Source: an uncultured Candidatus Saccharibacteria bacterium
Lineage (GTDB): Bacteria; Patescibacteriota; Minisyncoccia; Phycocordibacterales; DATDSR01
NCBI GenBank assembly: GCA_964348575.1
Contig: CAYGDD010000002.1
Location: 1 to 45,882 of the forward strand
Length of the DNA stretch: 45,882 bases
Direction of reading: 5' to 3'
Below are positions 21,894 through 43,663 of this stretch, piece after piece. Under the pieces are notes generated by a model that was given only the letters and a program-made list of their open reading frames with translations, was not told the origin of the DNA and ran no database searches. The translations under genes and the position numbers were made by a program. Numbering within the stretch: the first letter of the stretch is position 1; every line of letters begins with the position of its first letter.

Positions 21894-21965
21894 GGCCCTA
21901 TCGTCTATCGGTTAGGACACAAGCTTCTCAAGCTTGGAAGCGGAGTTCGACTCTCCGTAGGGTCA
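21894..21965 (+). tRNA. tRNA-Glu (anticodon CUC), CCA not encoded
   Basis: Manual cloverleaf: acceptor GGCCCTA/TAGGGTC (one G-U), D-arm GTCT-ATCGGTTA-GGAC, anticodon arm CAAGC-TTCTCAA-GCTTG, variable GAAG, T-arm CGGAG-TTCGACT-CTCCG, discriminator A. The TCGTCTA...AGGACA D-region is typical of tRNA-Glu. Confidence 0.85.
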
Positions 21966-22200: not shown

Positions 22201-22370
22201 AGAAATAAACGGTGTCAGGTACCGTTTCTGTATGATATTATCCAGTCATGTTTGGGGCATTACATAAGGCTGAGAGTGTTTACCATGTCCCAAACTGAGC
22301 TAACGAGAGGCCTTTAGTATTTGACCAAAAAAAGTACCTGACCCCTTTTATCCCTGACCCCTTTTATCTT
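22201..22370 (+). repeat. 170-bp direct repeat, copy A (MITE-like, subterminal inverted repeats)
   Basis: Identical to 23347-23516 at every position I compared by eye. The left arm ATAAACGGTGTCAGGTAC (22205-22222) is a 16/18 inverted copy of GTACCTGACCCCTTTTAT (22334-22351). An internal 11-bp stem pairs 22250-22260 with 22285-22295. Confidence 0.85.
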
Positions 22371-22412
22371 AATGGGGACGGGGTGTTGGGTGCTGTGGGG
22401 GGAGACAAATGC

Positions 22413-22440
22413 TTGACAAGGTCAAGTCGGCTAGTGTAAT
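22413..22440 (+). promoter_or_regulatory. Promoter of island unit U2 (TTGACA-16-TGTAAT)
   Basis: TTGACA at 22413-22418 is embedded in the palindrome CTTGAC-AAG-GTCAAG (22412-22426). TGTAAT lies at 22435-22440. Confidence 0.6.
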
Positions 22441-22446
22441 GTAAGA

Positions 22447-23121
22447 TTGGAAGTTAGGCCGTCGAATGGCCGGAAATGGAGGAACACTTTGCCGATCTTC
22501 AACATCAGATTGATCCCACAGAACAAGGGCGACGACTTCTATCGTCGCATCTACGAAGACATGGTGGCAGTCGTTATGGCCGATCGTCAGTTGCAGAAGC
22601 GCTTCGAAGACCACAGGCAACTGAGCTTCTGCTTCAACGCTGACCTCATGGAGTACGGCATGGGGGAGGAAGTAGTGATCGAGGTTACGCGCATGCCACA
22701 GATCGAGGGCGTGCCCTGGGCAAGGATCGCCGCCGAACTTGGCCTCTCCATCACCACCCTGCTGCCCGACACCAAGCTGGTCAACGTTTACATCGGATCC
22801 GAAACCGCGCCCTTGGCCGAGTGGTCTTCTGCGGACATGGAGATCAACTTCCAGGAGTGGTGCGACCGGACCATGCACCTCTCGGAGACGGAATCATCCA
22901 TCAAGTCCCGCCTGGGCCAGCTGATGCTCCGCTACAAGGAGCCTCTCGTCCGGCACATCTTCAAGAGTGTCGCAGAGAAGGAGTTTGACGCTCACATCAT
23001 GCGCCTGCTTCACGAGCTCACTGGTGAGGATCCTGTCCACGAGTATGATCGGGGCAAGATCCGAGTCATGGCTGCTTTCTGGATGGGATGGGGCCGAACC
23101 GCTGGCTACGACACTCTGTAA
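22447..23121 (+). CDS. Hypothetical ~210-224-aa protein with a central helix-turn-helix-like segment (island unit U2)
   Basis: Strongly GC3-biased ORF flanked by a promoter and a terminator. The tracked TTG start is at 22447. A better start is the TTG at 22489, 6 nt after GGAGG (22478-22482). WARIAAELGLSITTL resembles an HTH. No family was recognised. Confidence 0.65.
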   Translation: MEVRPSNGRKWRNTLPIFNIRLIPQNKGDDFYRRIYEDMVAVVMADRQLQKRFEDHRQLSFCFNADLMEYGMGEEVVIEVTRMPQIEGVPWARIAAELGLSITTLLPDTKLVNVYIGSETAPLAEWSSADMEINFQEWCDRTMHLSETESSIKSRLGQLMLRYKEPLVRHIFKSVAEKEFDAHIMRLLHELTGEDPVHEYDRGKIRVMAAFWMGWGRTAGYDTL

Positions 23122-23346: not shown

Positions 23347-23516
23347 AGAAATAAACGGTGTCAGGTACCGTTTCTGTATGATATTATCCAGTCATGTTTG
23401 GGGCATTACATAAGGCTGAGAGTGTTTACCATGTCCCAAACTGAGCTAACGAGAGGCCTTTAGTATTTGACCAAAAAAAGTACCTGACCCCTTTTATCCC
23501 TGACCCCTTTTATCTT
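23347..23516 (+). repeat. 170-bp direct repeat, copy B
   Basis: Identical by eye to 22201-22370. It is preceded by an extra partial copy of its own first 15 nt (AATAAACGGTGTCAG at 23334-23348). Confidence 0.85.
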
Positions 23517-23637: not shown

Positions 23638-23667
23638 TTGACAAAATGGATAATGTGTGCATATAAT
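23638..23667 (+). promoter_or_regulatory. Consensus promoter TTGACA-18-TATAAT of island unit U3
   Basis: TTGACA at 23638-23643 and TATAAT at 23662-23667. Confidence 0.65.
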
Positions 23668-23868
23668 GTATGTAGCTAACTAGTAACAGTATCGAAGGAG
23701 AACTCGTTATAGTTAGTAGATCTCTAAAATGATTCTGGAACCCTCTTGGAGTTACTTAGCTAGTACCTAACAACTAGCAACTAGTACCTACAAGAGGGAG
23801 GTGCGCGCTTTAGTCGCACCTGGACTTGCCTAGTCAGCAAGTGACAGCCCCTCGCTAAGGACAGAGTT

Positions 23869-24060
23869 ATGTTCAGAGCGATTGGATTTGTCATAGTGCT
23901 TCTAGCAGTCCGGTTCCTTATGCCAGTGGCCTTCCACTCGGCAGAGGACACCCTCGTTCAGGTCTTTGGCGCCTTGCAGAGCGCCGTGGCAGAAGTAAGC
24001 CAAAACAACCTGCTTGCCTCGCCATCAGGCGGGCTTGCCTCGCCTACGGTAAGTAGGTAG
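23869..24060 (+). CDS. Small 63-aa hydrophobic/secreted peptide (island unit U3)
   Basis: AAGGA (23857-23861) lies 7 nt before the ATG. The N-terminal segment MFRAIGFVIVLLAVRFLMPVAFHSA looks like a TM helix or signal peptide. G+C is high and a terminator follows directly. Confidence 0.5.
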   Translation: MFRAIGFVIVLLAVRFLMPVAFHSAEDTLVQVFGALQSAVAEVSQNNLLASPSGGLASPTVSR

Positions 24061-34442: not shown

Positions 34443-35562
34443 GGCTTTGAGCTATTTCTAGGATTACTTGGGCCATCTTAGAGGCTGCTTCTGGAGTGGC
34501 GAAGCTAAGGGCGTGCTCTCTCATGGTCTTTTGCATTTCCTTATTATCCATAATACGCTCAATCTCGGAGAGCAATATATGAGGTGTAAGATTCTGCTCT
34601 TCAAGAAGGATAGCTGCCCCAGTTCTGGCGTAGGCTAGAGCGTTATGGTGCTGATCGTGACTGACTCCACTTGGGATGGGGATAATTATAGAGGGCTTGC
34701 CCCACCCCGCTATTTCGAATATAAATGTAGAACCAGCCCTACTAACTACTAGTGAGGCTATGCCCGCTGCCATTCCAAGAGCAGTTGAGCCCAGGAAACC
34801 AGACATCTTATAGCGCGAAGCCTTGGGGTTATCTCCTAATATTACAGATAATCTATTACTAATCTCATTCGTATTTTTTGGACCGACTTGGTGTATAACC
34901 TGATACTTATCTAGGAGCTCAGGCAGGATATCAAGGACGATCTCGTTAATTGCAACTGCCCCCGTAGAGCCACCTACAATAAGCACTGTCGGGGTACTAG
35001 CATCTAGCTTTAGCAACTCAATAGCCCCATCAGCCTTAGGATTTCGGAGTTCGCGTCGTATGGGTATGCCCACTAGGGCCGTTCTATCCTTGGGGAAGTA
35101 GCTCGCGGCTTCCTCGTAAGCTATGCCGATTCGCCTTGCGAAGCTAGCGGCGAACTTGTTGGCTCGCCCTGGCTTAGAATCAGATTCGTGAATGACCACA
35201 GGGATACCAAGTAGGCGCGCAGCAAAGATAACTGGGAAACTCGCGTAGCCTCCCTTGCCCATAACGACATCCGGATAAATAGAAAAAAGTTTTCCCAGAG
35301 CCGTAGCTATGCCAAAAGCCGTGACAAAGATATCAAAAAAGTTTAAAAGTGAGAAGTAACGCCTAGTCTTACCTGCGGGCACTTTCTTAAACTCAATCCC
35401 ATATTCAAATAGAGCCCTCTCATCATAAGGAACATCCGACATATAGTAGTACTTAGGAGCTATGTACTTGTTGCTAGCTATAAGTTCGTTAAGCTCCTGC
35501 ACTATTGCAATGATTGGATAGAAGTGTCCGCCAGTCCCCCCTCCTGTAAATACAATTTTCAC
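34432..35562 (-). CDS. murG: Lipid II synthase MurG (UDP-GlcNAc transferase)
   Basis: 376 aa with the N-terminal FTGGGTGGHFYPIIA G-loop and a C-terminal GSTFIFEIAGWGKPSIIIP. Confidence 0.9.
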   Translation of the reverse strand: MKIVFTGGGTGGHFYPIIAIVQELNELIASNKYIAPKYYYMSDVPYDERALFEYGIEFKKVPAGKTRRYFSLLNFFDIFVTAFGIATALGKLFSIYPDVVMGKGGYASFPVIFAARLLGIPVVIHESDSKPGRANKFAASFARRIGIAYEEAASYFPKDRTALVGIPIRRELRNPKADGAIELLKLDASTPTVLIVGGSTGAVAINEIVLDILPELLDKYQVIHQVGPKNTNEISNRLSVILGDNPKASRYKMSGFLGSTALGMAAGIASLVVSRAGSTFIFEIAGWGKPSIIIPIPSGVSHDQHHNALAYARTGAAILLEEQNLTPHILLSEIERIMDNKEMQKTMREHALSFATPEAASKMAQVILEIAQSHEH

Positions 35563-36662
35563 TTTTTAATTTGCTTAGCTGATATTTGTAGAAGCACGCC
35601 AGAGCTAGCCAGTACTAACATAAGGGCAGTTCCTCCATGACTAATATACGGCAGGGGTATGCCAGTAAGTGGCACTATCCCAAGCATCGCCCCAATATGT
35701 ACATACGCTTGCGAGATTATCATTATAACAATCCCAGTGGCCATAAGTCTATGGAATTGATCAGGGGCTCTACGGGCTATCCCCAAGCCCCTAAGGCCGA
35801 AGGCGGTAAAGAGCCCTGTGATGATAAGTGTACCAATAAGTCCGAATTCTTCTCCTAAGACAGCAAAAATTGAGTCCCCAGTCGGTTCTGGGAGGTATTG
35901 AAACTTTTGGATACTCTGACCAAAGCCTCTACCCGTAGCCCCCCCTGCACCTATCGCAAGAATAGATTGCCTCAACTGGTAAGAGCTTCCTAAGGGGTCG
36001 CTAGTAGGGTCAACGAAGGTCGCAATGCGTGCTTTGACGTAAGGTCTAGTTAGGGCAAGTGTAGTAATTAAAGCAATTATAAGACCGCATATTATTGCAA
36101 GATGCTTAAGACTTCCGCCTGCTACAAGAAAGATAGCTAAGCTAGAAATAAGCATCACAAGGAAGGTGCCCGTATCTGGTTGCAATAAAAGGATTGTGCC
36201 AACTAGGCCAAGTATTATAGCCAAGGGCAACAAACCCTCCTTTAGTGTACCGGCCACATCCTTATTGGATGCGTACCAGCTAGAGAGGATGATAATTGTA
36301 GCAAGCTTGAGTAGTTCGGAGGGTTGTATAGATATGCCAGCAATAACTAACCAACGCCTAGCCCCTCCAGAAGCAAGGCCAATCCCTGGTACAAAGACTA
36401 GGGCTGTAAGAATGAGAGTGGAGAGGAAGATATATGGAGAGAGCTTCTTGAGCCATCTAACGTCGAGCTTATACATTGCCAACATCGCTAGTAGCCCCCC
36501 TCCAAGTCCGAAGACTAATTGGGAAAAAATTACGTCACTCCAACCCGCTCCACTTCTTGTTAGTAAACCGAATGAAGCTGACATAAATATGAAAAAACCA
36601 CAAACAACCAGCAGGATTATTATCGCGAGCATAATTGTATCTGGGAATCTGTTACTTTTCAT
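35559..36662 (-). CDS. ftsW: SEDS family glycosyltransferase FtsW/RodA
   Basis: 367-aa polytopic protein with QPSELLK and LQPDTGT motifs, adjacent to murG. Confidence 0.88.
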   Translation of the reverse strand: MKSNRFPDTIMLAIIILLVVCGFFIFMSASFGLLTRSGAGWSDVIFSQLVFGLGGGLLAMLAMYKLDVRWLKKLSPYIFLSTLILTALVFVPGIGLASGGARRWLVIAGISIQPSELLKLATIIILSSWYASNKDVAGTLKEGLLPLAIILGLVGTILLLQPDTGTFLVMLISSLAIFLVAGGSLKHLAIICGLIIALITTLALTRPYVKARIATFVDPTSDPLGSSYQLRQSILAIGAGGATGRGFGQSIQKFQYLPEPTGDSIFAVLGEEFGLIGTLIITGLFTAFGLRGLGIARRAPDQFHRLMATGIVIMIISQAYVHIGAMLGIVPLTGIPLPYISHGGTALMLVLASSGVLLQISAKQIKK

Positions 36663-37485
36663 CTCTGTCTATATTAGCAAGAGTCCACGAGATTAGCTTT
36701 TGCATTTCTTTTGCGCGCTTCTCCTTAGTTGCCCCAAGTAGGACTAATATAACTGGCCGGTCAATCCCCGCATCTATGATTACAACTAGATTGGCTCCAG
36801 CCAAATCTGTGGTGCCAGTCTTAGAGGCTAGTATACCAAGCATGGCCAAGACATCCCTGTTAGTATTGACCACTTTGTGTATTGCAGTTTCAGACTCTAT
36901 TTTAAGTTCTTGCCTAGTAGTTACATCAAGAGTTTGTTTAGAAAGACTCCATAAGCGGGTAGTTAGTTTGGCTACATCTCTAGCTGAGCCGTATCCGCCC
37001 GCTAGAGATAGGGATTCGTCGAGTCCAGTATAATTGAGAAAAAATGATTCGCTTAGGCCTAATTGGTCTATTAACTTATTTAGACACATCACACAGTTTG
37101 TCTTTGACTCCAGTTCTTCTCCAAGTACTGTGGCGGCATCATTGGAGGACGCAATGAGCATAAATTTGAGCAAGGAATCTAGAGTCCATACCTCGCCTAG
37201 TACAAGACCGCTATCCCCTTCTGTACCAAGTGCCGTAGCCGAAACAGTTAGTAAGTGGTCAGGCTCAAATGTCTCAAGCGCCACAATAGCCGTAGCGAGC
37301 TTGGTGAGTGATGCAAGCGGGAGTTGGACTCTCTCATTACTGGCTATGACAATTCTATCCCTATTTATATCGTACACATAGTAGGATAGTGCGTCTATAT
37401 GCAGACCCGCTGTGGCCATAGTCAGGGTGGGACTAAGTAGGATAAGAGTAGCTAAAAGTAAGATGAGGCTATAGATCTTCGGCAT
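36652..37485 (-). CDS. D-alanyl-D-alanine carboxypeptidase (S11, PBP5-like)
   Basis: 277 aa with a signal peptide and ASLTKL (SxxK), SSND (SxN) and KTGTT motifs. Confidence 0.85.
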   Translation of the reverse strand: MPKIYSLILLLATLILLSPTLTMATAGLHIDALSYYVYDINRDRIVIASNERVQLPLASLTKLATAIVALETFEPDHLLTVSATALGTEGDSGLVLGEVWTLDSLLKFMLIASSNDAATVLGEELESKTNCVMCLNKLIDQLGLSESFFLNYTGLDESLSLAGGYGSARDVAKLTTRLWSLSKQTLDVTTRQELKIESETAIHKVVNTNRDVLAMLGILASKTGTTDLAGANLVVIIDAGIDRPVILVLLGATKEKRAKEMQKLISWTLANIDRDEK

Positions 37486-38017
37486 TGCTACTGTAATAGT
37501 TCTCTATCTCTGTAAGTTTAAGCTTGGTCTCTGTCAGTTCAGGTAGGTCAGCAACGTCTCCGATCCCCATGTGAGCAAGGAGTTCAATGCTAGGTTTGTA
37601 TAGCATACTTCTCGCATTATTCTCATCCTGATTACGCTCCACTAATCCTCTTCGAAGTAGGTTACGAAGGATAAATTGGCTGTTAACCCCTCTAATATAG
37701 TCTATGCCACTTCTTGATATTGGCCCTTTGTAAAGGATAATTGCTAAGGTCTCTAGCCCAGCCTTACCTATACTCTTGCTCTGCTCGTCCTTTGCTATTT
37801 GCTCTAACTTGCTACTCGCTAGAGGTCTAGTGCCTAGGGAGATCATCTCGCCATTTGTAATCAGGCACACTCCCCTATTTGTTAGATTCTGTTCAAGGCT
37901 GACTATAATATTATCAAGCTCCTCGCTAGTTACAGCCAATACTCCAGCCAGCCACCCCCTTGTTACGGGTTCGCTCTTATAAAAAAGAATGGCTTCTAAT
38001 AATTGCTCGTTTGTCAT
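37469..38017 (-). CDS. scpB: Segregation and condensation protein B
   Basis: 182 aa with LEAILFYKSEPVT and tandem winged-helix halves. It has an ATGA overlap with scpA. Confidence 0.85.
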   Translation of the reverse strand: MTNEQLLEAILFYKSEPVTRGWLAGVLAVTSEELDNIIVSLEQNLTNRGVCLITNGEMISLGTRPLASSKLEQIAKDEQSKSIGKAGLETLAIILYKGPISRSGIDYIRGVNSQFILRNLLRRGLVERNQDENNARSMLYKPSIELLAHMGIGDVADLPELTETKLKLTEIENYYSSNAEDL

Positions 38018-38745
38018 GAATATGTTGGGGTGCTATTTTGAGTAGTTTCCATCTCTATATCGGCGTGTCTACCTTGCTGGCTTACTGACAGTATACCGCG
38101 TTTAACCAGTTCTAGCATGGCTAGGAAGCTTACTATAACCTCAATCTTTTCGCCCCGATCCTTATTAGAGAATTCCTTGAAGCTCATCCGCAGGCAAGCC
38201 CCAATTCGTTCGTGGAGATTATTGATTATATCATCCAGACTTATGACCTTAGTTATAACTTTTTCAACTAGTTTGACTTGCTTGACTGTGCGACTAAGTA
38301 GATCCTGTAGGCTCACCCTAAGAGCGTCTAGGCTCACATCTCTACCCGGATTAAAGATGGCAAGATAAGATAACGAGTCTTGTCTCATGTAAATACTATT
38401 ACCAGTAAGTAGCGATGCCACAGCTTCACCTTGTTTGACTAATATCTGGTATATGGCTAGGCGCTCCTCAAGGTCTTTGATATCGGCTGTCTCTTCACTG
38501 CTAAGCTCCAGATTGGGCAAGAGAGCCTTAGACTTAATAAGCAGTAGTATTGAGGCCACGTAGACAAAGTTGGCTGTGTCAGCCACAGGCAACTCCCCCA
38601 CGCTCTCTATGTAAGTCAAGAAGTCATCCGCCACTTTTGAAAGTGATACTTCAGATATGTGCAACTTCTGCTTCTCTACCAACTCTAGTAGCAACTCAAT
38701 TGGCCCGCTAAACTTCTCAGAATTTATAGCAAAAGCATTAGTCAT
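38014..38745 (-). CDS. scpA: Segregation and condensation protein A (kleisin)
   Basis: 243 aa with FSGPIELLLELVEKQKLHISEVSLSKVADDFLTYI. An extended -10 TGtTAAAAT (38752-38760, minus strand) lies 6 nt upstream of the ATG. Confidence 0.88.
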   Translation of the reverse strand: MTNAFAINSEKFSGPIELLLELVEKQKLHISEVSLSKVADDFLTYIESVGELPVADTANFVYVASILLLIKSKALLPNLELSSEETADIKDLEERLAIYQILVKQGEAVASLLTGNSIYMRQDSLSYLAIFNPGRDVSLDALRVSLQDLLSRTVKQVKLVEKVITKVISLDDIINNLHERIGACLRMSFKEFSNKDRGEKIEVIVSFLAMLELVKRGILSVSQQGRHADIEMETTQNSTPTYS

Positions 38746-38803
38746 CAGTAGATTTTAACACTAAGCACCAATTGTTCAAAACAACCCACCGCGTAGTTTG
38801 AAG

Positions 38804-38857
38804 TAAAAAAGAGCCCTAGCCAACCATACACATTACTGCGTAGGTCAGCCAGAGCTA
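38804..38857 (-). terminator. Rho-independent terminator on the minus strand, about 125-180 nt downstream of U4
   Basis: On the minus-strand RNA, UAGCUCUGGCUGACC pairs with GGUUGGCUAGGGCUC (14 bp including 4 G-U) around a 17-nt loop, followed by UUUUUU (plus-strand A6 at 38805-38810). Confidence 0.55.
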
Positions 38858-38983
38858 ACGGAGTGAGCCTGTTTACGGAGCATGATCCGGAGATCGCCTC
38901 CATAGTGAATCCACAGCCAGGGAGTGGACTAAGGCGGGTTTTGGTTGCGGGCCAGTGAGCTATTTGTTAACTGGTTGTCTCGT

Positions 38984-39364
38984 CTACAGCATCTCGAACG
39001 ATGCTGGATGGAGTTGAATCCAGATGAAGCAGTTACCCTTGAGCTGAGGGATCCCCTCTCTCAACCCGGCTGCGATTCGCTTGCGTCGCTCATCGAGATT
39101 AGCCCTACGTGCCGGGTACTCGTTGGCGTGGACGATGATCTGCAGAGGCAGAGTGTTGATATCGAGCTCGTGTCCGTCACGCACTTGCACCTCGATCTCA
39201 TCCACGGAGAGCCGACCCTCTGGCTCCTCCGGAACGTCCAATTCCTTTGCGACCAGCTCCCGTGTCAGCTCTCCTAGCAGCAGGACATTTGCATCCGGGA
39301 TGTTGTTCCCGGAGTGGGACAGCTCGGTCTTGTCGAGCTTACGATAAATTTCGATCAATGGCAT
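38984..39364 (-). CDS. Hypothetical 126-aa protein, possibly tautomerase-superfamily-like (Met-Pro start, two beta-alpha-beta halves) (island unit U4)
   Basis: I chose the ATG at 39364 (Met63 of the tracked ORF). AGGAG lies 9 nt upstream and the promoters occupy the remaining tracked N-terminus. The protein starts MPLIEIY and the second half contains LQIIVHA...DERRKRIAAGL...CFIWIQL. GC3 bias is strong. Confidence 0.6.
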   Translation of the reverse strand: MPLIEIYRKLDKTELSHSGNNIPDANVLLLGELTRELVAKELDVPEEPEGRLSVDEIEVQVRDGHELDINTLPLQIIVHANEYPARRANLDERRKRIAAGLREGIPQLKGNCFIWIQLHPASFEML

Positions 39365-39389
39365 ATCGGAGTTCTCCTTTCCTGAGGCG

Positions 39390-39434
39390 AGTCTAGCAAA
39401 AAGCTTGACAAATGTCAATAGGGTGGTGTATAAT
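39390..39434. promoter_or_regulatory. Back-to-back divergent promoters sharing a 14-bp palindrome of their -35 boxes
   Basis: Plus strand: TTGACA (39405-39410), 18-nt spacer, TATAAT (39429-39434). Minus strand: TTGACA (plus-strand TGTCAA at 39413-39418), 17-nt spacer, TAGACT (plus-strand 39390-39395). Together they form TTGACA-AA-TGTCAA at 39405-39418. Confidence 0.7.
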
Positions 39435-39561
39435 ATAGGATGTAAATCTTGAGCTGTTGGGTAATCAGGTTCAAGATTGGTCCGCCCTTCCTTATCCCCT
39501 CGAAAGAGCAAGCGGATGGGCTCCTGAGACTGGATTATGACCCCAGCCAAAGGAGAGACCG

Positions 39562-39783
39562 ATGGACATTTATGTTTGTGTTAAGTGCGAACGGAGTTTC
39601 AAGACCAACGACGAGAACGCTGAAACTTGTGAGAAGTGTAGCAAGCAAGAGTGCTTTACTGACCACACTGGAACTATCGACCTCAGCGATGTCCCCTGTG
39701 AGTTTGAGATTCAGGACTATGAGGATAACGGGATGTGCTATCGCTGTGGGGCACCCCCGTACGTAGACTGCAACTGCGACTAG
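39562..39783 (+). CDS. Acidic 73-aa protein with 10 cysteines (zinc-ribbon-like CxxC pairs) (island unit U5)
   Basis: AAGGAG lies 6-7 nt before the ATG. The cysteine pattern is CVKC...CEKC...C...C...CYRC...CNC. A terminator follows directly. Confidence 0.65.
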   Translation: MDIYVCVKCERSFKTNDENAETCEKCSKQECFTDHTGTIDLSDVPCEFEIQDYEDNGMCYRCGAPPYVDCNCD

Positions 39784-39791
39784 TGCGAAAG

Positions 39792-39835
39792 ACCGCCGAC
39801 CCAAAACATTAGGGTTCGGCGGTTTTCTTCTTCTT
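39792..39835 (+). terminator. Rho-independent terminator after U5 (convergent with the aspS end)
   Basis: ACCGCCGACCC-AAAACATTA-GGGTTCGGCGGT (one bulged T) followed by TTTTCTTCTTCTT. Confidence 0.75.
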
Positions 39836-39847
39836 AAATCTCCATAA

Positions 39848-41164
39848 TTATGGGTTTAGGCGTTTGACGTCTCGGGGGAGGAAAGTGGCTTCGCGTACGT
39901 TTGGGAGCTCTAATATCTGCATCACGATACGGCCTGGGCCTATGCCACCGCCACCATGTGGTGGGCACCCGAATTTGAAGAAGCTTATGTAATCACGTAG
40001 AGCGTCAAGATCCATGCCCTTCTCTTGTGCTTGCTTGGTGAGTACGTCGGGTCTGTGCTCGCGTTGTGCTAAGGTGGTAATCTCGAGCCCATTGTACAAT
40101 AAGTCTGCTCTGCGCGAGTAGTCAGAACCAATCTCTGTACGCATATGGTAGAAGGCGCTCTTACTTTTGTGATACTCGTGAATAAAGACAAACTCATGAT
40201 TATGTTTCTCTTTTACATATTCGCTGATGACACGCTCTTCTTCTGGAGACAAGTCGTGCTCTTCGCCACTTACTACTCCTCTTTCGGCTAGAATCTTTTT
40301 AGCCTCTAACATGGTTATCCGCGGGAAGGGTGCAATTGGTATTGTAATATTAAGTTCGGGCATGCGGAGGGCTACCTGCTTGAAGCCGGATATAATAAAC
40401 TGCTCCTCTTCATCCATTACGTCATGATGTGATTCTACATAACCTACCTCAAAGTCCCAACCGGTAAACTCCGTAAGGTGTCTGGTGGTAAATGAGGGTT
40501 CTGCTCTGAACACGGGTCCTGTCATAAAGACTCGCTCAAAGCCAGAGGCAATGCCCATTTGCTTGTAGAACTGGGGTGACTGCGCCAAGTAGGCCTTACC
40601 CTCGAAGTACTTAACCTCAAAGACCTCTGCTCCACTTTCGCTAGGCACATTCATCAGGGCCGGTGGATACAACTGGATGTAGTTATTATCTAGCCAGTAC
40701 TTCCGGAAGCCTCTCTCAAGCTCTGTCCAGATCTTAAAAATTTTGGCCTTCTCTGGCTTGCGAAGATCTATCCAACGATGGTCAAAGCGGGCAGGGGCCT
40801 CTGTCTCTTCTCCACCCTTAATAGTAACTACTGGTATGGGTAACTCTGGCTCGGCCATAGACAAAATCTGAAGTGAGCTGATTTGTATCTCAACTCCATT
40901 TGGCGCTTGTTTGGCCTCTACCACCCTACCCCCAATGCGCACCACACTCTCAAGGGTCAGTTCCTTAGCCCTCTCAAACTCGCTAGACTCTGCGGTAATA
41001 ACTACTTGCGCTAAGCCGGTGATATCGCGTAAGATCAAAAAAATAATCTTGCTCTGCACGCGCAAAGCCTGCACAAAACCCTGCACAAATACAATCTCAT
41101 TTACCCCGCCCTCTGCAGTGCCTATCTTCCCTCCCAACTCCCTTGTATGTGTAAATTTAAGCAT
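39848..41164 (-). CDS. aspS: Aspartyl-tRNA synthetase, archaeal/type-2 (class IIb)
   Basis: 438 aa with an OB-fold N-domain, motif 2 FRAEPSFTTRHLTEFTGWDFE (Asp-type D rather than the Asn-type E) and motif 3 GGGGIGPGRIVM. Confidence 0.8.
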   Translation of the reverse strand: MLKFTHTRELGGKIGTAEGGVNEIVFVQGFVQALRVQSKIIFLILRDITGLAQVVITAESSEFERAKELTLESVVRIGGRVVEAKQAPNGVEIQISSLQILSMAEPELPIPVVTIKGGEETEAPARFDHRWIDLRKPEKAKIFKIWTELERGFRKYWLDNNYIQLYPPALMNVPSESGAEVFEVKYFEGKAYLAQSPQFYKQMGIASGFERVFMTGPVFRAEPSFTTRHLTEFTGWDFEVGYVESHHDVMDEEEQFIISGFKQVALRMPELNITIPIAPFPRITMLEAKKILAERGVVSGEEHDLSPEEERVISEYVKEKHNHEFVFIHEYHKSKSAFYHMRTEIGSDYSRRADLLYNGLEITTLAQREHRPDVLTKQAQEKGMDLDALRDYISFFKFGCPPHGGGGIGPGRIVMQILELPNVREATFLPRDVKRLNP

Positions 41165-41250
41165 GTCAGTGTTTAACTATTGGAGTATAGCAATTATAAG
41201 GCTATTTGTGGAGGCCTAGTTGCCCTTCCTAAGTATTACTGTATGCACTC

Positions 41251-41278
41251 TTGACAAGCTATTCTGATTTGCTAATAT
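41251..41278 (+). promoter_or_regulatory. Orphan near-consensus promoter TTGACA-16-TAATAT pointing into the 3' end of the NYN gene
   Basis: TTGACA at 41251-41256 and TAATAT at 41273-41278. No plus-strand ORF lies downstream. Confidence 0.5.
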
Positions 41279-41284
41279 ATATCT

Positions 41285-41340
41285 ATCACCACGGAAAGTC
41301 CCCTCTATGGTCTAGTGCCTGGAGGGTCCTTTTCATTTTT
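41285..41340 (+). ncRNA. Candidate ~55-nt small RNA, antisense to the stop-codon region of the NYN gene
   Basis: It starts about 7 nt after the -10 box. A short GC stem CCCTC (41301-41305)/GAGGG (41322-41326) is followed by TCCTTTTCATTTTT. The stem is weak. Confidence 0.3.
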
Positions 41341-41821
41341 GGGCTACTTTATTTCTGAGATCATCCATAAAGTCTATATTTTTCCTAGCAAACCTTTTTA
41401 GTAAAGCAGAATACTTCTGTCTATTTGGGACCAGTAGTCTCTTTAGCTTACCCTGCTCCTCAAGATATTGCACAAGACAATAAAAGTCGCCATCACCCGT
41501 AACTATGACTGCCCTCTCAAAATTCACTAGCTGTATCATGGTATGAAGTACCAACTCCGTATCAACGTTCCCCTTAACAGTACCGTCTCTATACACGAGC
41601 GTTGGTTTAAAAATGCAAATGAAGCCAGCATCCTGCAGAGAGGTATATAAACGGTTGTTTCCCTCTAGAAAGCCAATAAAGATGAAAGCCTTCGTGACAT
41701 GGTATTTGTCCTTCAGGTGAATGCGGAACCTTCTCCAATCTAAATGCCATCCCAGTGCTCTAACAGCAAGATGAACATTCTGGCTATCTATGAATGCGTA
41801 ATTGTTTTCGTTGCCAGACAT
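41333..41821 (-). CDS. NYN/LabA-like (PIN-fold) domain protein
   Basis: 162 aa with YAFIDSQNVHLA near the N-terminus and VIVTGDGDFYCLVQYL, typical of LabA/NYN. Confidence 0.8.
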   Translation of the reverse strand: MSGNENNYAFIDSQNVHLAVRALGWHLDWRRFRIHLKDKYHVTKAFIFIGFLEGNNRLYTSLQDAGFICIFKPTLVYRDGTVKGNVDTELVLHTMIQLVNFERAVIVTGDGDFYCLVQYLEEQGKLKRLLVPNRQKYSALLKRFARKNIDFMDDLRNKVAQK

Positions 41822-41854
41822 GATTATATTGATGTGAGTATACCAATTCTGGGA

Positions 41855-43651
41855 CTAGTTGTGGAGGCCTATCTGGAGCTCGTAGAGCTTACGGTATACC
41901 CCTCCCTCTCTATCTGCCAGCTCAGCGTGCTTGCCTTGCTCTACAATCCTACCTTCATATAAGACTAGAATATTATCGGCGTGGCGCACTGTCGAGAGTC
42001 TGTGGGCAATGATAAATGTGGTACGTCCTCGCATAAGCTCTATTAATGATTCATTGATGGCGTGCTCACTCTTTGCATCTAGGGCCGATGTAGGCTCATC
42101 TAATATAAGTATCTTGGGGTTACGCAATATAGCCCTGGCAATAGCCACGCGCTGTTTTTGACCTACAGAGAGCCTAATCCCACGCTCGCCCACCAGTTGC
42201 TTCCATTTATTTGGGAACTTCTGTACGAAGGTAGTCACCTGAGCAAGTTCTGCAGCACGCTCTATCGCTTGTTTGGTGGCTTTGGTATTACCGTAACGGA
42301 TATTATTGAAGATAGTATCATCAAATAAGACAATCTCCTGCGAGACTACAGCAATGTTAGATCTTAGTCTGTACAAGTCGTGCTTCTTCACGTCTAGATT
42401 ATCTATTAGTACCCGCCCCCCAGTAGGGGCGAAGTAGCCCGAGATAAGATCTATCAGAGTGCTCTTGCCCACCCCAGACTCCCCTACTAAGGCTGTGATA
42501 CTACCTTTAGGAGCTACAAAAGAGATATCATTCAAGACCCCTTTGCCCGAGGGATATTTAAAGCTTACGTTACGAAGTTCAACGATCCCTTCGAATTCTT
42601 TTTGGGTCCCCTGTGCTCCCCTGTTATACTTCTCATGTGGATGCTGTAGCATCTTCTCTGCTTGGCCTATGCTCACTAAGCCACTTTGGAAGGTCTGCCA
42701 ATTTCTACCCAGTGTTACAAAGGGTCCAAACATCATAGCTGCATAACCATTAAACATCAGTAATTGCCCAACAGTCATATTGCCAGCGAGTATTTGGGAT
42801 ATGGTGTAGACATAAATAATTACTTGGACTACCAAGATTATGGACCTTTGTATCAGGCCCAAATTTTGCCATAGCCTATAAATTTTAATCCAAGCGTTAA
42901 AGCCGTGCACCGTAAACTGTCTAGTCAATCGCCCCTGCTCATATTCCTCTGTGGTAGCTTGCTTGACCGCTTGCACATTACCTAGAGCCTCATAGCTTAG
43001 ATGCCAAGCCTTACGCCAGGACTTGTTACGTGCTTTAGTTAAATCACTAATTGGTCGCACCAGGAAGAACATGATTACCGTATAGAGCAACACTCCTGCA
43101 AGCAGGACAGTGGCTAAGGTGATATTGATGTACATTGTAATACCGAGTGCAACTATAAACGTTAGTAGTTGCGGACCGATATCAGAGATAACACTGCCGG
43201 AAATATCACTAAGTTCGTTACCCGCTCGTTGGATCTTATCTGTGATATGCCCAAGCTTACGTGACTTATGGAAGTGCATGGGCAAGAACATAAGGTTAGA
43301 GAAGGCCAACGCGTAGTAGTCCGATAACGCTCGTAATCCTATGGCCTTACTTTTGCGAGAGTTGTACGAGCTAGATATGTGCATAAAGGCCTGCGCAGAT
43401 GCCCACAATACAAGGAAGATTATATGCAAATATATAAGGCTACCCATCACAGACACCTTGTGGGGCGTGATGATAGCGTCCAATAATCGGCCTCCAATAT
43501 ATGGCGTTAGACCCTCAGCTATGGCCAAGAGCATACCCACAAGGGTCACCTTGATTAAGTCTATCCTGTAGACAGCGAGGTGCTCCCAAACGGCCCGGAG
43601 GCCAGGGAGCAAGGACTGTAATCCAGATTTTTTTATCTTGCCATCGGGCAT
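41855..43651 (-). CDS. ABC exporter, fused permease/ATPase (MsbA-like)
   Basis: 598 aa with six TM helices, Walker A GESGVGKST, signature LSVGQKQR and Walker B ILILDEPTSALD. Confidence 0.9.
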   Translation of the reverse strand: MPDGKIKKSGLQSLLPGLRAVWEHLAVYRIDLIKVTLVGMLLAIAEGLTPYIGGRLLDAIITPHKVSVMGSLIYLHIIFLVLWASAQAFMHISSSYNSRKSKAIGLRALSDYYALAFSNLMFLPMHFHKSRKLGHITDKIQRAGNELSDISGSVISDIGPQLLTFIVALGITMYINITLATVLLAGVLLYTVIMFFLVRPISDLTKARNKSWRKAWHLSYEALGNVQAVKQATTEEYEQGRLTRQFTVHGFNAWIKIYRLWQNLGLIQRSIILVVQVIIYVYTISQILAGNMTVGQLLMFNGYAAMMFGPFVTLGRNWQTFQSGLVSIGQAEKMLQHPHEKYNRGAQGTQKEFEGIVELRNVSFKYPSGKGVLNDISFVAPKGSITALVGESGVGKSTLIDLISGYFAPTGGRVLIDNLDVKKHDLYRLRSNIAVVSQEIVLFDDTIFNNIRYGNTKATKQAIERAAELAQVTTFVQKFPNKWKQLVGERGIRLSVGQKQRVAIARAILRNPKILILDEPTSALDAKSEHAINESLIELMRGRTTFIIAHRLSTVRHADNILVLYEGRIVEQGKHAELADREGGVYRKLYELQIGLHN

Positions 43652-43663
43652 TTATTATCTCTA

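Follow-up and report, generated by a model that had tools for sequence, protein, structure and literature searches.

A palindromic pair of -35 hexamers in a small GC-rich island of a Patescibacteria genome: a predicted divergent promoter module with shuffled gene partners

Introduction

Symmetric bidirectional promoters, described by Warman, Grainger and colleagues, consist of pseudo-symmetric DNA that engages RNA polymerase either way (PMC12825309, PMC10268837). Their two directions share a symmetric -10 element, with start sites that lie mostly 18 bp and also 10 or 23 bp apart; at strong overlapping divergent promoters in E. coli, competition between polymerases has been demonstrated, and it is expected only when the promoters are strong (PMC12825309). 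Here we analyse a divergent pair of small genes, U4 and U5, whose predicted promoters have their -35 hexamers joined in a palindrome. The pair lies in a 45,882-nucleotide stretch of DNA from an uncultured Candidatus Saccharibacteria bacterium (assembly GCA_964348575.1, contig CAYGDD010000002.1, positions 1 to 45,882), the whole of which we call the window.

Short near-palindromes that occur at many loci and supply promoter activity or control are known from the Correia elements of Neisseria and the korA/korB operator promoters of IncP plasmids. The Patescibacteria (the Candidate Phyla Radiation, CPR) have tiny genomes in which, to our knowledge, almost no mechanism of regulation or gene transfer has been characterised. 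The tautomerase superfamily, to which U4 will be compared, is built on a beta-alpha-beta unit, and its characterised members have a catalytic Pro-1 and arginines that hold a carboxylate (PMC5818174).

An earlier reading of this DNA, made without database searches (the sequence-only reading), had noticed a foreign block containing U4 and U5 and had likened it to a two-gene toxin/antitoxin, immunity or switch module. The observation is confirmed and the interpretation partly supported. Beyond what that reading could see, the conserved and reused unit is the palindromic promoter sequence itself. The explanation that we favour, with a probability of roughly 0.55, is a mini-island centred on a promoter, with shuffled cargo genes and mutually exclusive binding of RNA polymerase.

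Results

Two predicted promoters interlock across one palindrome

U4 (38984-39364, minus strand) and U5 (39562-39783, plus strand) lie on either side of a perfect 14-bp palindrome, TTGACAAATGTCAA (39405-39418), that is made of two opposite-strand -35 hexamers with 2 bp between them. The predicted U5 promoter, TTGACA-18-TATAAT (39405-39434, plus strand), matches the consensus at 12 of 12 positions and would start transcription near 39441. That of U4 (39390-39418, minus strand) matches at 10 of 12, with the -35 TTGACA at 39418-39413, a 17-bp spacer and the -10 TAGACT at 39395-39390; it has a TG extended -10 motif at 39398-39397 and a predicted start near 39383. Read in the plus-strand direction, the four hexamers are -10 (minus), -35 (plus), -35 (minus) and -10 (plus), each -35 being placed within the spacer of the opposite promoter. 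A distance of 34 bp separates the -10 hexamers (39390-39395 and 39429-39434), and one of about 58 bp the predicted start sites. The sequence-only reading had both promoters and the palindrome right, and it had described the promoters as back to back; they are divergent and have the dyad in common, but they interdigitate.

TTGACAAATGTCAA is found once in the window, even with two mismatches tolerated. A crossing pair of plus- and minus-strand promoters likewise occurs once (0.005 expected from 200 shuffles), and two promoters reach 12 of 12 consensus positions against 0.02 expected from shuffles. A literature search on the palindrome returned nothing relevant.

The module recurs between different divergent gene pairs

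When the window was compared by BLASTN with loci that carry U4 homologs, homology ran from the U4 stop codon (38984) exactly to the outer edge of the palindrome at 39418. In an alignment of the region upstream of U4 from four lineages, the dyad, a T-tract and the TG and TAnnnT of the U4 promoter show little or no variation, against an identity of only 70-77% in the coding DNA. A 13-bp dyad, TTGACTTTGTCAA, stands upstream of every close U4 homolog, the form in the window being one base longer, and the opposite-strand TTGACA-18-TAnnnT is present in every lineage and in all copies of the module.

Metagenome contigs were scanned for TTGAC-N3/4-GTCAA-N2/3-TTTTTGCTA, which yielded at least 120 stretches. 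The extended sequence (A/T)TATTACACCAA(A/G)(G/A)CAC-TTGACTTTGTCAA-G..TTTTTGCTA(A/G)G is in 14 of the 120 stretches listed, and these come mostly from aquifer (groundwater) samples that also hold U4 homologs. Among the stretches listed, this module of about 55-60 bp is situated between about ten different divergent gene pairs. At most copies, open reading frames (ORFs) preceded by Shine-Dalgarno sites begin about 25-95 nt away on both sides, and homology between copies stops at the two -10 hexamers.

The genes on the two sides of the module are combined in different ways. A 225/230-aa gene has as its right partner U4, a 204-aa membrane protein, a 71-aa protein or a disrupted copy, and the 122/130-aa MPVIEVML gene is partnered by U4 or by a 121-aa membrane protein. 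Further pairs include cysteine-rich proteins of 172 aa (locus L057) and 59 aa (L127). Islands made up of the module and its two genes, with a G+C (GC) content of 0.52-0.57, stand among housekeeping host genes at 0.37-0.45 in L057, L098 and L127, much as in the window, and the 12-kb locus L041 holds two copies of the module. In L036 and L041 (module at L041 1160) the module, the U4 leader and the Shine-Dalgarno site are kept, but beginning two bases ahead of the U4 start codon the sequence is unrelated, so that the gene start marks a junction produced by recombination or deletion. IMG/VR gave no copy of the module, three matches to its left arm lacking the dyad.

We considered whether promoters with TTGAC-N3/4-GTCAA are bidirectional as a general rule and rejected this: among 77 de-duplicated unrelated metagenomic dyad promoters, 19 (about 8 expected) carry a mirrored -10 at a distance of 16-18 bp, a modest enrichment, and the survey has a second peak at 12 bp. 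An unrelated and widespread promoter family was also seen, TTGACC-NN-GTCAA...TGCTAT(T/G)AT, after which comes a conserved 80-nt leader (approximate length) that has no Rfam match (L031, L032, L052, L061, L062, L065, L066, L074, L078, L083, L088, L093, L099, L104, L125, L142 and L145). Its ORF (starting MRGDPLARQWR...TIYRDL) has an N-terminus like that of helix-turn-helix (HTH) regulators of the DeoR/WYL kind, and many copies are truncated after about 40 codons; the dyad of this family looks like an autoregulatory operator.

U4 homologs have many neighbours and no U5

Homologs of U4 occur in at least five contexts besides that of the window, and a U5-like gene is in none of them. Six left neighbours were counted: a 122-aa protein, a 225-aa protein, an insertion sequence (IS), rmuC, an 82-aa protein and U5. 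Some U4 homologs have a SET-domain gene and a 117-aa MPCIKITIP protein beside them, and on the left one of three alternatives: a divergent 122-aa MPVIEVML protein plus a 73-aa protein, a divergent 225-aa protein, or an IS with DDE_Tnp_1. Elsewhere a homolog adjoins rmuC and a PemK toxin gene, or is at the border of a SocA/Panacea antitoxin cluster. Since the distant members of the family are stand-alone genes in unrelated contexts, they give no clue to a pathway for U4. The sequence-only reading had named a failure of U4 and U5 homologs to co-occur as evidence against its own proposal, and U4 homologs are never found beside a U5 homolog. As part of the explanation that we favour, U4 and U5 would be independent cargo and not a co-evolved pair.

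In L001-L006 (for example L001 1534-1887 and L006 622-990) the U4 homologs are flanked by two small proteins that start with Met-Pro and by the SET-domain gene. The 117-aa and 122-aa Met-Pro proteins were rejected as U4 homologs (hhalign probability <1%, no match by hidden Markov model (HMM)), and they may represent further Pro-1 fold families that are clustered together. The region downstream of U4 was compared with the 117-aa neighbour gene, of which it might have been a remnant, and no similarity was found. Directly downstream of the U4 homolog in L009/L010 is a gene for an 85-aa membrane-anchored protein with two CxxC pairs (L010 488-745) and a weak Double zinc ribbon match; this gene is missing from L007/L008, where the locus is in other respects the same.

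The block is a foreign insertion between aspS and scpA

The minus-strand host genes on the two sides are scpA (38014-38745; Pfam SMC_ScpA) and aspS (39848-41164; a class II tRNA synthetase). A scan with AspS, at one genome per species, gave 11 loci, 10 of them labelled as Patescibacteria-type lineages; the four closest that reach beyond aspS (L014, L015, L016 and L024) have 68-77% AspS identity. The order aspS-scpA-scpB-dacS11 (a D-Ala-D-Ala carboxypeptidase)-rodA is the same in the window and in all four, and the gap between aspS and scpA is 1102 bp in the window as opposed to 14-43 bp in these relatives, from which the block is absent. The block is a foreign insertion, as had been proposed, with wider limits than the 38804-39835 first given to it: relatives' gaps, GC content and independent contigs (L012 and L165) set its extent at 38746-39847, bounded by the start codon of scpA and the stop codon of aspS. 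Because contigs from other assemblies span 35365-39149 (100% identity) and 39139-40206 (99.9%), both junctions are independently supported and an assembly artefact is excluded.

The composition of the block is atypical. Its GC content is 51.0% in a window of 46.0%, in the top 3% of 1.1-kb window segments, and that of U4 is 55.9%, in the top 1.3%. GC at third codon positions (GC3) is 0.69 in U4 and 0.62 in U5, compared with 0.41-0.52 in the adjoining host genes. The enrichment is genuine yet moderate, and U4 homologs too have a GC content above that of their own contigs. Two tests for a genomic island therefore have positive outcomes, absence from relatives with conserved flanks and atypical composition.

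On the scpA side a promoter scan found TTGAAC-16-TAAAAT (38752-38779, minus strand), a promoter-like site for scpA. Because the -10 TAAAAT ends 7 nt ahead of the ATG and no Shine-Dalgarno site is present upstream, scpA may be expressed from a leaderless mRNA that the insertion created or exposed. On the other flank of aspS, the window has a gene with an NYN domain (41333-41821) and an ABC transporter gene (41855-43651); in L014, L015 and L017 a 325-aa gene directly adjoins aspS, which points to 41165-43663 as a second insertion.

U4 has the predicted fold of a tautomerase

U4 encodes 126 aa beginning MPLIEIY, a start found in all close homologs, with a proline directly after the initiator methionine (Pro-1 if the methionine is removed). 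A word-indexed protein search gave three clusters of close homologs, at 78, 77 and 67% identity, and a profile search of 1.84 billion representatives gave a family of 401 proteins at E<=1e-3, nearly all of 110-135 aa. Across 130 aligned members, M1 and P2 are conserved at >=90%, R86 is invariant, R93 is at >=90%, and L42, L52, A80, P84, R93, W115 and L118 are nearly invariant. The only name on family members is 'hypothetical protein', from Kerfeldbacteria, Vogelbacteria, Minisyncoccia or 'Patescibacteria group'. A 188-aa extension of U4 from a TTG start (38984-39550) was rejected: the homologs all begin MPL and the promoter falls inside the extension.

An AlphaFold2 model based on the 130-sequence alignment has a predicted local distance difference test score of 92.9 and a predicted template-modelling (TM) score of 0.87, with the order strand-helix-strand-strand-helix-strand. 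Foldseek found 78 PDB matches at E<=0.001 (best E 1.4e-5). The best 50 of the 78 are nearly all to MIF, D-dopachrome tautomerase (D-DT), cis-CaaD/Cg10062, fused 4-OT, MSAD and other tautomerase-superfamily entries; the others are designed cages, with no other natural fold among the 50 listed. A shallow model from four sequences ranked the same families with weaker scores. In the model, R86 and R93 are placed where the second unit's helix begins, a position that, judged from secondary structure, would be equivalent to the one described for Arg-11 and Arg-70/73 (PMC5818174).

No match to U4 was obtained from Pfam (E<=1), NCBIfam, PADLOC, PHROG or PDB sequences, and none from PDB sequences with the family profile. 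Since U4 has both the predicted fold and Pro-1, we place it in the tautomerase superfamily, as the sequence-only reading had suggested, apparently as a new subgroup beyond the reach of current sequence models. It is most likely a small-molecule enzyme acting on a keto-enol or carboxylate substrate.

Relatives of U4 were absent from phage and plasmid collections (tblastn) and the BFVD viral models gave no structural match. Defence, toxin-antitoxin and phage origins were rejected, the scans with PADLOC, PHROGs, tblastn, BFVD and IMG/VR being negative or giving chance matches.

U5 is a predicted orphan cysteine-rich mini-protein

U5 is predicted to encode 73 aa with an isoelectric point of 4.15, a net charge of about -11.5 and ten cysteines (positions 6, 9, 23, 26, 31, 46, 59, 62, 70 and 72), arranged as CxxC-13-CxxC and then CxxC-7-CxC. 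Homologs were found neither in 5.8 billion clustered proteins, nor by tblastn in more than 160 fetched loci, nor in the PDB. The sole hints, sub-threshold matches to zinc-finger and zinc-ribbon models of Pfam and NCBIfam, suggest that it is probably a zinc-ribbon-like mini-protein that binds zinc. We treat U5 as a real orphan gene because it has a Shine-Dalgarno site, coding-like GC3 and a terminator 5 nt past its stop codon.

Leaders and terminators

Both genes and their strong Shine-Dalgarno sites, noted in the sequence-only reading, are present, as are their terminators. AAGGAG stands at 39374-39379 (minus strand) ahead of U4 and at 39550-39555 within the predicted 5' untranslated region (UTR) of U5 (39441-39561, plus strand), which is about 121 nt long. 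The putative intrinsic terminator of U4 (38803-38856, minus strand) is a hairpin at 38812-38856 followed by UCUUUUUU; its folding energy of -29.7 kcal/mol (z -5.16) was equalled by none of 200 shuffles. The putative terminator of U5 (39789-39835, plus strand) has a hairpin at 39789-39826 and a T-rich tail (-22.5 kcal/mol, z -4.59); read on the minus strand, the same hairpin comes after aspS (z -3.24). A simple terminator scan overlooked both hairpins, which were recovered by fold energy.

Among the fetched loci, the U4 3' UTR (38857-38983, minus strand) was matched by BLASTN in contigs of the same strain only. Rfam returned no match to this UTR or to the U5 5' UTR, and in the whole window at the gathering threshold, or in 38600-40000 at E<=10, it found just one tRNA, outside the block. 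A riboswitch or structured RNA in the U5 leader was rejected, with a fold z of -1.03 and no Rfam match.

A second dyad lies near 22.4 kb

The window holds a second copy of the dyad, CTTGACAAGGTCAAG (22412-22426), the sole exact TTGAC-N3-GTCAA in it (0.03 expected). Here the plus-strand promoter alone is intact (TTGACA-18-TAATGT), and it is followed by GGAGG and an ORF with a TTG start, T2 (22489-23121, plus strand; 210 aa, MPIFNIRL...). In its N-terminal half T2 is similar to the 122-aa MPVIEVML protein that is encoded divergently from U4 homologs in L005/L006 (BLASTP E 3e-6); Pfam gave no match to T2.

A perfect 170-bp direct repeat (22201-22370 and 23347-23516) brackets the GC-rich insert of 976 bp that contains this dyad and T2; a tRNA gene (21894-21965) is found about 240 bp upstream of the insert. 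The 26-nt ends of each repeat unit are imperfectly inverted, with 81% complementarity. Candidate explanations are a target duplication, an att-like site, a small repeat element and an assembly loop. Just past its second unit is the other full-consensus promoter of the window, TTGACA-18-TATAAT (23638-23667, plus strand), upstream of a small ORF and rmuC. Further downstream, a stretch of 78 nt (about 23850-23924) is common to the window and L057, where it also precedes rmuC.

Discussion

We propose that a small, horizontally acquired island, built around a portable bidirectional promoter of about 55-60 bp, has split the aspS-scpA operon of this CPR genome. In this core, two promoters of the sigma-70 type would be set on opposite strands, with their abutting -35 hexamers forming the dyad TTGAC-N3/4-GTCAA and each hexamer sitting in the opposite spacer. 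Both would be active with the housekeeping sigma factor, driving U4 leftward and U5 rightward, and an intrinsic terminator of its own would close each transcript. Because the polymerase footprints, taken as roughly -55 to +20, would have about 50 bp in common, occupancy of one promoter would exclude the other, leaving one polymerase per module. Expression of U4 and U5 would then be anti-correlated for each initiation event, with the balance set by promoter strength and the stronger promoter limiting the weaker. Of the two modes of control raised by the sequence-only reading, polymerase competition is reasonable to expect from the geometry. Repeated copies of the module would in addition offer homology for recombination at the module or next to it, by which left and right half-cassettes may be swapped.

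A wider and more tentative suggestion is that the dyad promoter serves a lineage of groundwater Patescibacteria as the hub of undescribed mini-islands of 1-2 kb, each GC-rich and with two small divergent genes, whose half-cassettes are exchanged at the hub by recombination. If so, these otherwise minimal genomes would have access to a combinatorial pool of self-expressing accessory genes. Zinc-ribbon mini-proteins and membrane proteins would be part of this pool, alongside a tautomerase-fold family that is so far known from Patescibacteria alone. Transport of swappable cargo into housekeeping operons by a reusable promoter would be a simple route for the turnover of accessory genes, and such a promoter would give CPR genetics a ready-made strong bidirectional element.

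Several observations weigh against our explanation. Every promoter and start site described here is a match to consensus, and from this we infer promoter activity. The palindrome is absent upstream of the distant U4 homologs, so the module characterises one sub-lineage and not the U4 family as a whole. U5 is known from one sequence and is a putative coding gene. As for U4, its similarity to the structural matches is moderate (TM-score 0.46-0.65, sequence identity 8-16%), and the tautomerase, MIF and CHMI models of Pfam are matched by none of 130 family members (E<=0.1). Hallmarks of mobility were not detected: there is no integrase, transposase or other mobility gene within the block, no target-site duplication or terminal inverted repeat was found around it or around three similar islands, and the phage, plasmid and IMG/VR collections hold no match to it. 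Finally, the conservation of the spacer within the module exceeds the need of two -35 boxes and would also fit an operator, and the full dyad is retained at the T2 copy although the second promoter there has no -10.

Those last two points bear on an alternative that we regard as possible though doubtful, and that is compatible with a promoter-centred island: the dyad may be mainly an operator, to which a dimer encoded in trans binds at about -28 of both promoters, repressing the islands as a regulon. The whole module, non-consensus spacer bases included, is kept across about ten contexts; the dyad is intact beside T2; and mirrored -10 hexamers accompany only 19 of the 77 unrelated dyad promoters, with one such family preceding HTH regulator genes. 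On the other hand, no regulator gene is linked to the module, whose partner genes are heterogeneous. U5, being strongly acidic, is unlikely to be a DNA-binding regulator of the palindrome, and it is absent elsewhere. The half-sites are exactly the -35 consensus, with a correctly spaced -10 for each in every lineage, and dyad spacings of both N3 and N4 among the copies would be awkward for a rigid dimer.

The remaining alternatives are each less likely than an operator. It is improbable that the module alone is mobile, as a small palindromic repeat of the miniature inverted-repeat transposable element (MITE), repetitive extragenic palindromic (REP) or Correia-like kind that inserts between pre-existing divergent genes and donates outward promoters. 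Near-identical, near-palindromic stretches of about 55-60 bp are indeed common to many unrelated gene pairs, with two copies within 17 kb in the window and two in L041. Such an element, however, would not account for the absence of the entire 1.1 kb, genes included, from the relatives, nor for the homology of U4 and the module as a single unit across four contexts. Flanking genes on either side of module copies exceed their hosts in GC content, and the lack of terminal inverted repeats and target duplications around the block and similar islands counts here too. The module is multi-copy and near-palindromic, as such elements are, but no duplications or defined ends were found for it, and its breakpoints are at the two -10 hexamers.

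An equally small chance is given to the proposal that U5 is not a gene and that the product of the plus-strand promoter is a non-coding or antisense RNA, or that this promoter simply insulates the island. The lack of any homolog, and hence of conservation evidence for coding, would agree with this, as would the long predicted leader. Against it are the AAGGAG 6 nt before the ATG, the stop codon 5 nt before a strong terminator, a coding-like contrast between a GC3 of 0.62 and 0.38 at second positions (GC2), the regular spacing of CxxC motifs, and a leader with no Rfam match or unusual fold.

Least probable of all is the sequence-only proposal of a dedicated two-gene module (toxin/antitoxin, immunity or bistable switch) with interacting products: the compact divergent layout with overlapping promoters, the GC3 raised in both genes as if they had arrived together, and the recurrence of cysteine-rich mini-proteins by module copies or U4 homologs (172 aa in L057, 59 aa in L127, 85 aa in L010) speak for it, but U5 has no homolog at all, those proteins are not detectably related to it, U4 homologs have six different neighbours with none conserved for the distant ones, and no toxin/antitoxin or defence model of PADLOC, Pfam, NCBIfam or PHROG was matched.

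Comparison with known systems

With type II toxin-antitoxin and immunity pairs the locus has in common two small genes, a tightly packed regulatory region and a foreign insertion; it differs in that U4 and U5 are divergent and not co-transcribed, their partnership is not conserved and they match no known family. U4 resembles the tautomerase superfamily (cis-CaaD/Cg10062, MIF/D-DT, MSAD and fused 4-OT) in its length of about 120 aa, its b-a-b-b-a-b order and the proline after Met, and differs from it in that no Pfam or PDB sequence match was found in 130 family members, of which those that are named all come from Patescibacteria. The family would be a large branch of the superfamily that lies beyond curated sequence models and keeps the Pro-1 hallmark, and as such a target for enzymologists.

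The module is like the Correia elements and the korA/korB operator promoters in being a short near-palindrome present at many loci and serving unrelated genes. It differs in that no terminal inverted repeats, target duplications or linked regulator were found, and its flanking genes appear to move with it or to be exchanged at it.

The symmetric bidirectional promoters provide the closest parallel to the arrangement itself, for in both cases one polymerase binding event should exclude the other. At U4/U5 the symmetric element is the pair of -35 hexamers and not a shared -10, the -10 hexamers and start sites being set 34 bp and about 58 bp apart, and by the published definition (PMC12825309) the locus has two separate overlapping divergent promoters. 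Sharing of the -35 region would be a second design, besides -10 symmetry, for a promoter at which two polymerases must compete.

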